From contig CM000433.1 in the NCBI GenBank assembly GCA_000165345.1, forward strand, positions 992,001 to 1,056,000: a DNA stretch of 64,000 nucleotides. Direction: 5' to 3'. The notes beneath the pieces are model-generated. The model was not told the DNA's origin, did not search any database, and saw nothing but the letters and a program-made list of their open reading frames with translations. Shown here one piece after another: positions 52,049 to 64,000 of this stretch. The translations under genes were made by a program, and so were the position numbers. The first letter of the stretch is position 1. Each line of letters opens with the position of its first letter.

Positions 52049-52289
52049 TTCTCAACTTATTCTTTAAATAAAGTTTACATATGTTTCTAAATAATTTAAC
52101 CACAGATTAATATTATATTTTTCTTTTTATGCCACCATATCATTTACAATATTACTTCTTTATGTATTAAAATAACAAAAGAAAGCCAATTTTTTATTTA
52201 TTTTCTTTCTTCCTTCTACAAGACAATATTTTAAATTGTACTGAAATTCACTGGCCTTAAAATTAATCTTTTTGATGATTTATTAAACT

Positions 52290-52312
52290 GGGTACCGAGT
52301 CGATATTCGAAT
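52290..52312. other. Probable residual cloning-vector polylinker at a contig end
   Basis: gggtaccgagtcgatattcgaat resembles the pUC-type MCS GGGTACCGAGCTCGAATTC (the second half of the SmaI site, then KpnI-SacI-EcoRI) with a few base-call errors. It lies directly before the N gap. Confidence 0.45.
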
Positions 52313-52412
52313 NNNNNNNNNNNNNNNNNNNNNNNNNNNNNNNNNNNNNNNNNNNNNNNNNNNNNNNNNNNNNNNNNNNNNNNNNNNNNNNNNNNNNNNN
52401 NNNNNNNNNNNN
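52313..52412. other. Scaffold gap, exactly 100 N
   Basis: Run of 100 n characters. The composition differs on each side. Confidence 0.95.
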
Positions 52413-53206
52413 TTTAAAATCAATTAATTAATTCTTTTAATAAATAAATAGATAAATTTCTTATATAATTTTGATTTTAAAGAAAAAAAAAAAAAAAATA
52501 TAAGAATAACTATTAGATAATACATTGATAATAGGATTAATAGTTATAGCATTATTATTAATAATAGGATTTAATAATGTTAATAATTATAATGATAATA
52601 GAAATAATTACAGGTTAATACTAATATTAAAAATAATAATAACAATAATAATAGTAAATAGAAAAATAAAAGTACAAATATTAATTATTTCTTAAACATA
52701 ATAATTATTAGTACTATTTTAAACAACTAAATAATTAATTAGTTTTATCACTTTTAAAAACAAAATTTTTCTTTTTTTACAAATCAAAAAACCCACATTC
52801 AATTTTCAAATAGTTGTCATTAAAAACTTATTTAAAAAATTCAACCAATTAAAAACACCACCAACTCCAATATTAATAAATATATTAAGTAATTATATTA
52901 TCATAAATTTACTTAATTTATTTCATTAATAAAAATCCCATTTAAATTTTCTTTTATAAGATAATCGTAATAAAAATCATCATCATTATTATCATCTCAA
53001 ACTTAAGTATTTAAATAAAATAAACTCTGATAAATCTTCTTTCAAGCAATTATTATTTTATACTCAAGTTTTTTTTTTCATTTATTCAAACAAAATCCTC
53101 ATACACATTTTTTTCTCATGCAATTATTATTTCCTACTTAAATTGATTAAAGAAATTTAAACAAACCCACATAAATCTATTCTTCTCTTAAAAAAGAATT
53201 ATATCA

Positions 53207-53515
53207 TCATCTTAATAATTTTACTTCTTCATTTGATTTATTTCGATAATTTTCTTCATTACTTATACTATTATTTATATCTATACGTAATTTTTCTAAT
53301 AAATCATTTATTAATACTTTCATACCAAATAAATTTTTTGTTAAATATTCAATACCATTTATATTTAATAAATATTTCTCAACATTATATTGATATGATA
53401 TTTTTTCACATTCATAATCTATTATTACATTATTAATTATTGTACATTTACAATTTTTTTTGCAATGGTACACCAATATAATAATGATTATTATTAATAT
53501 CATCATTATATTCAA
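53207..53515 (-). CDS. Possible 3' extension of the 53448-54236 secreted-protein gene in an alternate frame, or a spurious ORF
   Basis: It overlaps the end of the upstream ORF by about 68 bp. A(8)/T(8) runs lie at the junction. Confidence 0.2.
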   Translation of the reverse strand: MNIMMILIIIIIILVYHCKKNCKCTIINNVIIDYECEKISYQYNVEKYLLNINGIEYLTKNLFGMKVLINDLLEKLRIDINNSISNEENYRNKSNEEVKLLR

Positions 53516-60880: not shown

Positions 60881-60932
60881 NTAATAATTAACAATTATCA
60901 AAATAAATTATTTATTTTATTAAAATAAAATA

Positions 60933-61943
60933 TTATAAAATTTTTTTTAAAAATATTATAAAGTATCTTCGATAATCCCCCTTTTCATCCCAATAACTAC
61001 ATTGTACTTGTGATATATGCTCTTTTCTTAATATTAACATACATAAACGACTTTGTCCTATTCCACCACCTATTGTTTCTGGTAATTCATTATTTAATAA
61101 CATCTTACAATATGGTAATTTTAATCTTTCAGTAGAATTACATATCTCTAATTGTTTTATTAATGATTCTTTATTTACACGTACACCCATTGAACTTAAT
61201 TCAATTGGACCATTTAAAATATTACTCCAATATATTAAATCACCATTATATTCCCAATCATCATAATCTGGTGCACGTAAATCATGCACTGTATTATTAC
61301 TTAATTTTTTACCTATTTGTTTAATAAATACTGATCCATATTTTTTACATATTTCTCTTTCTCTATCATTACTTGATAGATTTGGATACATATTTAATAA
61401 TTCTTCAGATGATATTATATATAATTCTTTTTTTATCATTTCATTTTCATTTGGTATATTTACTATATCTTGTTTTTCTTTTTTCATATTCCAATATAAT
61501 CTTTCTAAATTATATATATTATTATGTATTATTCTTGCTATATCTACTAATATTTCATCTTTTGTTTTACCTTTATTTGTATCTATTACCATTTCCCAAT
61601 CCCATTGATCTACATATATTGAATGTAAATTATCTAATTCTTCTGATTTACGTATTGCATTCATATCTGCATATAAACCATTTAATTCATATTTTTTTAA
61701 TGCATATCTTTTCCATTTTGCTAATGATTGTACTATTTCTAATACTTTATTGTTAAATGTAAATGATACTTTTTCTTCATAACCAGATAAATCATCATTT
61801 AAACCTGATTCTTTTTCAAGAAATAAAGGTGCTGAAATACGAATCAAATCTAATGATTCTTTTAGTAATTGTTGAAATGTTATTTTAATAAATTCAATAT
61901 CTGCTAATACTGTTTTAAATTGGCTTTGTTTTTTAACTTCCAT
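60933..61943 (-). CDS. asnA: Aspartate--ammonia ligase (asparagine synthetase A, AsnA type)
   Basis: Colinear with E. coli AsnA, including SLAKWKR, SIYVDQWDWE, DVRAPDYDDW, ELSSMGVRV and TIGGGIGQSRL blocks. Complete 336 aa ORF. Confidence 0.9.
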   Translation of the reverse strand: MEVKKQSQFKTVLADIEFIKITFQQLLKESLDLIRISAPLFLEKESGLNDDLSGYEEKVSFTFNNKVLEIVQSLAKWKRYALKKYELNGLYADMNAIRKSEELDNLHSIYVDQWDWEMVIDTNKGKTKDEILVDIARIIHNNIYNLERLYWNMKKEKQDIVNIPNENEMIKKELYIISSEELLNMYPNLSSNDREREICKKYGSVFIKQIGKKLSNNTVHDLRAPDYDDWEYNGDLIYWSNILNGPIELSSMGVRVNKESLIKQLEICNSTERLKLPYCKMLLNNELPETIGGGIGQSRLCMLILRKEHISQVQCSYWDEKGDYRRYFIIFLKKIL

Positions 61944-62874
61944 TTTAATAATAATAATATTATTTTATTATCTTATTTAGTTACTTTTATTTAATTATTT
62001 TTAATTTCTGCTTTTTTCTTTCTCTTTTTTTTTTTTTTAATAAATTCATGATTTCTTCCAAGTCCCGCTAATTAATAGAATTATTTATTAATAATTGATG
62101 TTGATATTATTATTATTATTATTTTATTTTTAAAAAACTGATTATTATTTCTAAACTTTTAATATTGAATAACAAGGAATAATATTATTACATTATTTTT
62201 TTTTTCTTTTTTGAATATAATATTTTTCATTTATTATATGTTTTAAATATCATATTTATAAAATTTATTTATCATTAACTATATATTTATAATAATTTAT
62301 TTAAAATCATTAATTATAATCACAAATTTAATAAATTAATGATTAATTATGTTAATTAATTAATCTTAAAATAATAATTATCTTGTATTCATTTATTTAT
62401 TAATTATTATTATTATTATTATTATTATTATTATTATCAATATTTTTCTATTTTTATTTTATTTTTTTTTAACGATGTTATTATTAATCAAGAAAAATAA
62501 AGAAAGAAAGATAAATAAAATTAATATTGATTATTAAATATCATTAAAAAAAAAAATCTTTTTCAACAATTTGATATAAGTAATAATAAAAAAAAAAAAA
62601 AAAAAATGAATTTATTATTTTAGGTGGGAAAAAAATATTATAAAATTTTTTTTTTTGGTGGGAAATAAAATAATCCAAGTGCATATAACACGAAATTGTT
62701 TATTTTTATTTTTTTTTTGTTTTATATTATTAATAATTGTATCATTATTTTTATTTCATTTACAATTTATTATTATTTATTAAAAATAAGTTTTTTTTTT
62801 CTTTTTTTTTAAAAAAAATTTCAAGTTATTTTATTGAATCTAAATATTGCAATTAATAATTTTTTAAAAAATAG

Positions 62875-63300
62875 ATGAAGGTTTTATCATTAATTAAATT
62901 ATTCACACTATTTTTAATAAATATTATTAATATTCATGATATTAATCAATACTTTTCAATAATATCTAAATCATCATTTATTACTTTGAAATCATCATTA
63001 AGAGGAAATAATGAATCTAAAGATAATCATGATGGTATAACAGCTTGTGGTAATAAAACACCTAATTGTGTTGGTGGTTATTATATAACTGATAATCAAA
63101 GTGATACAAATAATGAATCAAAAGTTAGTCATGATGGTATAACACCTTGTGGTAATGAAACACCTAATTGTGTTGGTGGTTATTATATAACTGATAATCA
63201 AAGTGATACAAATAATGAATCAAAAGTTAGTCATGATGGTATAACACCTTGTGGTAATAAAACACCTAATTGTGTTGGTGGTTATTATATAAATGAATAA
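62875..63300 (+). CDS. Small secreted tandem-repeat protein (signal peptide plus three 34-aa Cys-containing repeats)
   Basis: Signal peptide MKVLSLIKLFTLFLINII. Three near-identical repeats NESKVSHDGITPCGNETPNCVGGYYITDNQSDTN, encoded by a 102-bp tandem repeat at 63010-63300. Confidence 0.5.
   Translation: MKVLSLIKLFTLFLINIINIHDINQYFSIISKSSFITLKSSLRGNNESKDNHDGITACGNKTPNCVGGYYITDNQSDTNNESKVSHDGITPCGNETPNCVGGYYITDNQSDTNNESKVSHDGITPCGNKTPNCVGGYYINE
63010..63300 (+). repeat. 102-bp tandem repeat, about 2.85 copies, coding
   Basis: Copies 2 and 3 differ by one or two nucleotides. Copy 1 is slightly more diverged. Confidence 0.9.
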
Positions 63301-64000
63301 TGATAAAAATCAAATAAACAAGAATAATTTTGTTTTAAATTACAAATTAATTATTATCATAAATAATATGATAATAATAATTATAAATGAATAAACAGTA
63401 ATTATTGTTAATAATTATTATTTATTATAAACTATTAATATTTCTGAAGTAAAATTTAAAAAAATTTAAAAAAAATTAATAATTTATTTGAATATATTTT
63501 ACTTTCTTTTATTCATTAATTTTTTTTTTTTTAAAGTTATGTACATATGCACAAATATATCATTTTTTTTTTTTTTTTTCTTCTTTTAAATTATTTTTAT
63601 TTATCAAATTAAACGCATTAATTTATTATATTACTAATATAAATATGAATTAAAACATTTTCGATATTATGTTAAAACTAATATTATTATAGGATTATGT
63701 TTTAATAATATATTATTAAAAATTTATTTAATTCCTAATTATATTAGTTGAACAATTAATTAATATTCAATAAAAATAATAATAATAATAATGATAATAA
63801 TTTATTTTAGTATATTATAAAAAAAATAAATAAAAGATCTTGAAAATTAATAAAAGTTTATAAAAAATAATTCAATAATAATAAAAAAAAAAAAAAAAAA
63901 GATAATATGGAATAATAAATAAAAATAATGAGAAAGTTTAATATTATATATATATTCTTTTTTTTAATTTTAATAAATTTAATTGTGATCTAATATTTTA

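Follow-up and report, generated by a model that had tools for sequence, protein, structure and literature searches.

A base-composition step in the 2004 Cryptosporidium parvum 'chromosome 5' record, very probably produced by a known mis-scaffold

The record for 'chromosome 5' in the Sanger/HAPPY-map reference of 2004 for Cryptosporidium parvum IOWA (GCA_000165345.1, contig CM000433.1) changes abruptly in base composition at a run of 100 N. Here, we analyse a 64-kb stretch of this record (positions 992,001 to 1,056,000 of the forward strand), which we call the window and within which coordinates are counted from its first base, and we conclude with high confidence that a known mis-scaffold gave rise to the composition step. 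On this explanation, an inverted contig from the core of chromosome 5, with its true internal end at the gap, would abut across the 100 N a second contig, itself part of a block of ~38 kb that would lie between the ribosomal RNA (rRNA) gene cluster and the telomere and be near-identical on chromosomes (Chr) 1, 7 and 8. Real DNA on either side, a core of 27% guanine plus cytosine (GC) and a chromosome-end compartment of 17% GC, would have been brought together by an assembly error, and the switch to AT-rich sequence would, in the real chromosomes, take place at the ribosomal DNA (rDNA) unit. The mis-scaffold has already been published and is corrected in later assemblies; the present results reproduce each point of that account independently, and the composition, the non-adjacency of the two sides, their chromosomal addresses, the rDNA neighbour and the vector tail at a contig end are observed directly.

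A composition step between two non-adjacent contigs

The N run occupies exactly 52313-52412, and the best single binomial change point over all 64 kb, sought without supervision, is base 52311 (log-likelihood ratio 305), that is, at the gap, which bears out an earlier note on this DNA that had placed a change of composition at a 100-N gap with these limits. Overall GC is 27.3% over 1-52312 and 16.6% over 52413-64000, the block lying ~11 GC points under the adjacent chromosome 5 sequence, and a comparable difference is found outside open reading frames (ORFs), where GC is 23.4% on the left (7494 nt) vs 12.4% on the right (6408 nt). Mean GC in 500-bp windows is 0.273 to the left of the gap (n=104) and 0.167 to the right (n=23; Mann-Whitney p=8.6e-11), with just 1% of the left-hand windows falling below the right-hand mean; the poorest 11.6-kb stretch of the left side has 23.8% GC, and certain 1-kb windows right of the gap fall to 10%. 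GC at third codon positions (GC3) spans 0.125-0.304 in 18 left-hand ORFs and 0.035-0.129 in the five right-hand ones (p=1.2e-4).

The finer description of the right-hand side given in the earlier note holds in part. Its intergenic DNA is strongly AT-rich, but the wording 'almost pure A/T' overstates an actual 87.6% AT. The (AAT)n, (AT)n and (AATT)n repeats reported there are all present by Tandem Repeats Finder (TRF), as (AAT)~127 at 59060-59441, (TAT)~122 at 59593-59954, (AT)n at 58301-58347 and 58910-58962, and (AATT)8 at 54507-54539. As claimed, two right-hand genes, guaA (GMP synthase) and asnA (aspartate-ammonia ligase), are enriched relative to the left-hand genes in GGT (71% vs 34%), TTA (81% vs 49%) and AAT (96% vs 87%), but the same claim fails for ATT, whose share is 62% on both sides of the gap. 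The reported use of CGT for arginine is likewise true of guaA and asnA (52% vs 9% in left genes) but confined to them, the remaining three right-hand ORFs using AGA (79%).

The left contig (1-52289) is assigned to the core of chromosome 5 by the position of its TSP gene and by alignment to C. hominis, and it is inverted here relative to the long-read assemblies. The TSP protein (33381-35351) is matched exactly at ~738.5-740.4 kb of CP044418.1 (1,086,393 bp) and lies at the equivalent position in three further chromosomes of ~1.09 Mb, making four C. parvum assemblies in all; in 4/4 of these the TSP, TK and VPS13-like genes adjoin one another at ~720-750 kb of ~1.09 Mb, reversed with respect to the window, and the end of the left contig extrapolates to ~721.5 kb of 1,086 kb, deep in the chromosome. 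The contig ends in the intergenic DNA upstream of a giant VPS13/chorein-like gene (35762-52048, minus strand), which is represented by three ORFs in the window and recognised by a VPS13_N Pfam match on 50849-52048. With its 389-aa VPS13_N segment as query a single C. hominis match was returned, and on the continuous 216-kb contig JIBM01000070.1 of C. hominis 30976 genes for a cullin, an acetyltransferase and a carboxylesterase lie ahead of the VPS13 N-terminus, in DNA with an ordinary GC of 21-33%. Window positions 49001-52289 align to this contig at 96-97%, and the alignment stops at base 52289.

The 23 nt that follow, at 52290-52312 (plus strand; GGGTACCGAGTCGATATTCGAAT), are the sole part of the contig end left unaligned against the orthologous region of C. 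hominis. They are a probable remnant of cloning vector, left untrimmed in the public chromosome record, to judge from their likeness to the SmaI side of the pUC18/19 polylinker, which we take to read GGGTACCGAGCTCGAATTC: 18 of the 20 aligned positions are identical, with 2 indels, and GGTACCGAG is unique to the contig end within the window. The unaligned 23 nt and the polylinker match together suggest that the left contig terminates in a clone end and at no biological boundary.

The right contig (52413-64000) is placed by long-read alignments in a hyper-AT, rDNA-distal subtelomeric block that runs from cgd5_4510 onward. It aligns end to end with CP044422.1, at ~885.7-897.2 kb of 920,510 bp (GCA_015245375.1), and equally end to end with CP141118.1 (919,856 bp) and CP029786.1 (1,324,395 bp); over the 11,589-nt alignment, Ns excluded, there are 11 substitutions in 11.5 kb against the 0.92 Mb copy and the same number against the 1.32 Mb copy. 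The 684-aa guaA product has an exact match at ~887.9-889.9 kb of CP044422.1 and another in CP141118.1. Within the long-read loci, the 7.8 kb preceding the right contig gave no alignment to anything left of the gap. In the long-read locus L001 the DNA preceding the right contig carries 5.8S (259-406) and 28S rRNA (915-4374), the 28S lying 3.4 kb proximal to the start of the right contig, and RRT15-type ORFs hold the matching position in two further loci, L018 and L019. The CP029786.1 copy, 22-43 kb from its chromosome end, provides a third assembly with the same gene order and with rDNA on the proximal side. No bases bridge the two sides at the junction, and its flanks are non-adjacent in independent gap-free assemblies.

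Low GC extends beyond the part of the block contained in the window, being 11-22% throughout 5-22 kb of L001 and 10-24% per kb over the rDNA-distal stretch (~17 kb) of three long-read assemblies, where 32-38% is reached only inside the 28S. Since it recurs in three long-read assemblies, the low GC of the block is no artefact of the old sequence. In CP044422.1 the end of the 28S and that of the chromosome limit the block to at most ~38 kb, as against >100 kb for a classical isochore, and 'compositional domain' is a safer term than the 'isochore' used previously, distinct and fairly homogeneous though the block is. A search of the window for (TTTAGG)3 telomere repeats with up to 2 mismatches found none, as expected of a window that stops ~23 kb short of the CP044422.1 end, and their absence is no argument against membership of the block.

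The misplacement itself has a published history. Isaza et al. 2015 found that cgd5_3100 and cgd5_4500 adjoin in C. hominis and that cgd5_4510-4610 could not be assigned to a chromosome (PMC4637869), and Guo et al. 2015 described inversions around sequence gaps, with cgd5_4510-4610 on small scaffolds (PMC4407392). Baptista et al. 2022 reported related copies of the block on Chr 7 and Chr 8, in the order chromosome-specific sequence, rRNA cluster, duplicated region and telomere, together with inversions affecting the 2004 versions of Chr 2, 4 and 5 that are bounded by gaps or ambiguous bases; PCR and Oxford Nanopore (ONT) reads back the revised order, and the HAPPY map holds no linkage of the block to Chr 5 (PMC8744675). 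The telomere-to-telomere CpBGF assembly is reported to contain three copies of the block in one assembly (PMC12179316), and the papers of 2015, 2022 and 2025 together report that cgd5_4510-4610 belong at the replicated ends of Chr 1, 7 and 8. Set beside the replicated subtelomeres of Chr 1/7/8 (PMC8744675, PMC12179316), the right-hand side of the window is the same region in an older, mis-scaffolded version, with no structural difference; set beside the inversions and misplaced scaffolds of 2004 IOWA Chr 4/5 (PMC4407392, PMC4637869), it is again the same case, with the breakpoint at the gap and cgd5_4500 truly adjoining cgd5_3100, and what we add to those two accounts is the probable vector remnant at the contig end. 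Assemblies, alignments and literature (PMC8744675, PMC4637869, PMC4407392) together identify the 100-N scaffold gap (52313-52412) as a false join.

Alternative explanations for the junction

Some points weigh against the account of a mis-scaffold given above. Non-adjacency of the flanks is seen from assemblies and not directly from reads at the junction, and the presence of the block on more than one chromosome (at 0.92 Mb in CP044422.1 and CP141118.1, at 1.32 Mb in CP029786.1) is seen across different assemblies and not on three chromosomes of one. The C. parvum neighbour past the VPS13-like gene is one that we infer from chromosome coordinates and C. hominis synteny, and the cause of the AT-richness discussed below is inferred too. 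Against these points have to be set the difficulties that each alternative meets. Were the hyper-AT block truly distal chromosome 5, with the gap hiding a short unsequenced stretch, it would be natural for the 2004 gene numbers to run on across the gap, as they do (cgd5_4500, cgd5_4510), and for C. parvum DNA to lie on both sides; such contiguity is nonetheless extremely improbable, given a left flank ~720 kb into a 1.09 Mb chromosome in four complete assemblies, a right flank that in three adjoins rDNA close to the end of a chromosome of 0.92 or 1.32 Mb, a C. hominis contig that leads from VPS13 to a cullin gene, a probable vector tail on the contig end, and the HAPPY-map and PCR evidence for the revised arrangement (PMC8744675). 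The earlier suggestion of a real hyper-AT subtelomere is sound in so far as the right contig is genuine C. parvum subtelomeric DNA in three complete assemblies, but not in making it contiguous with chromosome 5, and the reading favoured in the earlier note, a distal end of C. parvum chromosome 5, has the right organism and the right source, the 2004 reference, but the wrong chromosome.

A copy of the block might instead have moved to chromosome 5 in the 2004 IOWA isolate and later have been lost. The block is evolutionarily mobile, occupying three chromosome ends and found at 0.92 Mb in two assemblies and 1.32 Mb in another, and slight variation among reads has been noted for each subtelomeric region (Baptista et al., PMC8744675), but we regard a strain-specific translocation as very unlikely, as the left contig runs in mid-intergenic DNA into what is probably vector, a pattern that marks clone ends and not breakpoints, the gap has no bridging sequence, the right contig starts at the edge of a tandem paralogous segment of 82-83% identity, which is typical of an assembly break, and the HAPPY map again gives no linkage (PMC8744675). 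Next to no weight attaches to the idea of a chimera in which the right contig stems from a contaminant or another very AT-rich organism. The sharp differences in composition and codon usage, the best matches of guaA outside Cryptosporidium, which are to Treponema and other Spirochaetia, and the listing of asnA as eubacterial (PMC545779) would all suit it, but in three independent C. parvum assemblies the contig is part of megabase chromosomes, beside eukaryotic rDNA and with the few substitutions given above, and its guaA is just 67-69% identical to bacterial proteins, has eukaryote-style poly-asparagine (poly-Asn) inserts and a GC3 of 3.9% vs 29% in Treponema, and falls in one clade with its C. 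bovis and C. xiaoi counterparts at 100/100 bootstrap support.

Both sides of the gap are genuine C. parvum DNA, and we return to the mis-scaffold as the explanation of the step. A false join had been among the possibilities raised at the outset, and the join is indeed false, the left side being Chr 5 interior and the right side coming from other chromosome ends, but the contaminant origin offered with it is not upheld. The test suggested for such a chimera, a best match of the distal half in another taxon, would give a false positive here; as the best matches of guaA outside the genus are to Treponema and appear to reflect an old transfer, the test would mislead.

Gene content of the two contigs

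The genes named in the earlier note agree with Pfam, namely guaA (GATase and GMP_synt_C), asnA (AsnA), TK (TK), TSP (TSP1) and VPS13 (VPS13_N). In the right contig guaA (cgd5_4520; 54601-56655, plus strand), which also matches NAD_synthase, encodes the GMP synthase (GMPS) of 684 aa with a GC of 21.6%. Its top matches in a collection of 5.8 billion proteins are GMP synthases of 626 aa from Treponema sp. and Spirochaetia, with those of C. bovis and C. xiaoi interleaved. Identity to the Treponema/Spirochaetia proteins is 61-63% over the full length (BLASTP, 950-975 bits) and 67-69% over ungapped columns, and among solved enzymes the scores are 255 bits for that of P. falciparum and 287 bits for human GMP synthase. 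Between C. bovis and C. xiaoi the protein identity is 97%, and to the Treponema proteins it is 74-75%, the latter being mutually 81-95% identical; the genes flanking the Treponema-type guaA, on contigs of 70-120 kb, are ordinary bacterial ones. In a neighbour-joining tree of the best 120 matches only, built without an outgroup and open to long-branch attraction, the C. parvum, C. bovis and C. xiaoi proteins form one clade in 100/100 bootstraps among 118 spirochaete-type sequences. A candidate explanation of the C. bovis and C. xiaoi genes, which are found on 3-kb contigs, as gut-Treponema contaminants was rejected, their mutual identity being 97%, their identity to Treponema at most 75% and their place in the tree with C. 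parvum.

These sequence relationships suggest that guaA is an old bacterial gene transfer, and they would fit a single gain of this spirochaete-type gene in an ancestor common to C. parvum and C. bovis, with parsimony as the sole guide to the direction of transfer. The gene is integrated beside rDNA in the long-read chromosomes and has host-like features in its poly-Asn inserts and its GC3, which is 0.039 in C. parvum, 0.233 in C. bovis and 0.292 in Treponema. We also considered whether the CGT codons for arginine could be a positional fossil of bacterial codon usage, an idea unsupported beyond inheritance within Cryptosporidium: the Arg positions are conserved 17/17, and the choice between the CGN and AGR codon families agrees at 14/17 in C. 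bovis and 9/17 in modern Treponema. Huang et al. 2004 listed asnA and trpB as eubacterial in origin and left GMP synthase unlisted (PMC545779). Both of these are genes of the block, and both stand among the Cryptosporidium genes of bacterial origin (IMPDH, TK, trpB, asnA; PMC545779, PMC4777385), which guaA resembles in having bacterial genes as closest homologues and in differing strongly from the Plasmodium enzyme. Our literature search returned no paper describing a spirochaete affinity of guaA, an earlier GMP synthase phylogeny (Striepen 2004 PNAS) being possible, and neither 'GC content' nor 'AT-rich' occurs in the searchable text of the papers on the block (PMC8744675, PMC12179316), which suggests that, as far as the searchable papers go, both the affinity and the compositional anomaly of the block are undescribed.

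Two poly-Asn insertions interrupt guaA, one at aa 214-251 (55240-55353, plus strand), which is an in-frame AAT microsatellite overlapping a TRF AAT-type array at 55241-55368, and one at aa 486-501 (56056-56103, plus strand), within (TAA)n at 56019-56104. Both tracts are in-frame AAT arrays specific to C. parvum, with no counterpart in the proteins of C. bovis and Treponema, and the intergenic arrays share their motif. In the CP029786.1 copy (GCA_031892065.1; L018 7586-9637) guaA encodes 683 aa vs 684 aa in the Chr 1 copies (L019 7582-9636), a difference of one residue for which a variable poly-Asn tract is the obvious candidate.

The second enzyme gene of the right contig is asnA (cgd5_4540; 60933-61943, minus strand; Pfam AsnA, E=8e-77), whose 3' end is frameshifted here. 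Its product in the window ends in …DEKGDYRRYFIIFLKKIL (336 aa) and that of the long-read assemblies in …DEKNMMEDTL (328 aa), the rest being identical, and the difference is probably a 1-nt indel error beside the N-ridden stretch 60453-60881, affecting 60933-60990; owing to the frameshifted 3' end in the window, an exact look-up with the 328-aa model found no match. The trpB and MEDLE genes of the block fall past the end of the window.

The other three right-hand ORFs are uncharacterised, have hydrophobic, signal-peptide-like N-termini and gave no Pfam family on scanning. The first, of 262 aa (53448-54236, minus strand), is probably cgd5_4510, a label assigned via the gene order in the papers, and its product is matched exactly on CP044422.1, CP141118.1 and CP029786.1. 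Directly proximal to 53247-54539 in the long-read sequence lies a tandem paralogous segment of 82-83% identity (L001 6550-7851), in which the neighbour gene encodes 302 or 325 aa; the start of the 2004 contig coincides with the edge of this duplication, the probable reason for the assembly break. The second ORF, of 272 aa (56666-57484, minus strand), is annotated in all long-read loci. The third, of 141 aa (62875-63300, plus strand), is likewise annotated in long-read loci and is made of 2.9 copies of a 102-bp unit (TRF 63006-63301, 95% matches) that encodes the Cys-containing motif …HDGITPCGNKTPNCVGGYYITDNQSD….

Between the 272-aa gene and asnA, TRF and an inverted-repeat search delimit paired (AAT)n and (ATT)n arrays at 59060-59954, which form an imperfect palindrome of ~0.9 kb. 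The arrays are ~150 nt apart and the arms reach up to 217 nt, one 173-nt pair being 87% complementary; the region aligns to its own reverse complement and is kept in every long-read copy. Such a palindrome could act as a fragile site or form a cruciform. Close by on its distal side is the low-quality Sanger stretch 60453-60881, one of three clusters of isolated Ns in the window that indicate a low-quality consensus, the others being 31119-31157 and 50793-50881.

The latter two clusters fall within genes of the left contig. The VPS13-like gene is a single gene of 5401-5405 aa in CP029784.1 and CM109965.1 and is broken in the window by the Ns at 50793-50881 and a stop at 42613-42616. Exact-product look-ups with ORF 50849-52048 and with the 2691-aa VPS13 segment found no match, owing to the Ns and sequence differences that set the window apart from the long-read gene models, and a homology search with the low-complexity 2691-aa segment returned nothing at E<=1e-30. 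Further to the left, a shorter low-GC patch of 17-20% lies at 29-33 kb, and the chromosome 5 core contains a low-complexity, low-GC (17-23%) coding stretch (27827-32577), which is split into two ORFs here by the Ns at 31119-31157 and is modelled differently in each assembly, as 1095+340, 1198, 1582 or 1596 aa. This coding stretch means that short hyper-AT patches occur outside the subtelomeric block too.

Origin and significance of the hyper-AT block

As for why the block is so AT-rich, the explanation we prefer is a region-specific regime of AT-biased mutation and slippage. The expansion of AAT microsatellites in both intergenic and coding DNA would be a sign of the slippage, and the regime would operate on a multi-copy compartment, homogenised among three chromosome ends, whose dispensable genes are weakly selected. 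GC3 in the guaA of C. bovis is 23% vs 3.9% here, which would confine the AT shift to the C. parvum lineage. Taken together, the AAT arrays encoding poly-Asn, the block-wide low GC, this GC3 contrast and the dispensability of GMPS suggest an AT-biased process acting on the region. A larger proposal can be put forward only tentatively and with more doubt than confidence, namely that the replicated block is a discrete hyper-AT compartment in which asnA, trpB and a guaA derived from a Treponema-like gut spirochaete are concentrated, under a mutational regime particular to the lineage and region, with slippage of AAT repeats and AT-biased exchange among the three chromosome ends.

Plasmodium falciparum offers the familiar case of hyper-AT DNA with poly-asparagine insertions, and the block resembles it in the in-frame AAT repeats that give poly-Asn loops in a conserved enzyme, in intergenic DNA of 85-90% AT and in its (AT)n and (AAT)n repeats. 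Unlike in P. falciparum, the hyper-AT state is limited here to a block, a few tens of kb long, at chromosome ends, and the genome averages ~30% GC. The low GC is not a general effect of subtelomeres: C. parvum subtelomeric genes at large have an ordinary GC of 30.5% (PMC10438818), which makes a block of 17% GC exceptional. The subtelomeres of C. canis and C. felis likewise differ in composition from the core, but in the opposite direction, at ~50% GC vs ~17% here (PMC10438818).

The main value of these results is in quality control. The 2004 chromosome 5 record misleads in that guaA, asnA, trpB and the MEDLE genes appear in it as single-copy genes at the end of chromosome 5, whereas they really lie on three other chromosome ends in near-identical copies, and its composition switch could be misread as a feature of the chromosome. 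The misplacement affects copy-number estimates, variant calling and the design of knock-outs, GMPS having been targeted as cgd5_4520 (PMC6800313). GMPS could be deleted without apparent defect and is dispensable in the parasite (PMC6800313). That knock-out took cgd5_4520 as one locus, where later assemblies have three chromosome ends; with three guaA copies, a complete loss of the coding sequence would mean replacement of every one, and the copy number in the knock-out may deserve a second look. More generally, a best match in another taxon is an unsafe test of contamination where old gene transfers exist.

The biology that remains is a modest and testable lead, and no discovery: a block of ~17% GC, in a genome of ~30% GC, that carries several enzymes of bacterial derivation. 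If the hyper-AT compartment proposed above is real, it would be a natural experiment on how chromosome ends reshape acquired genes.

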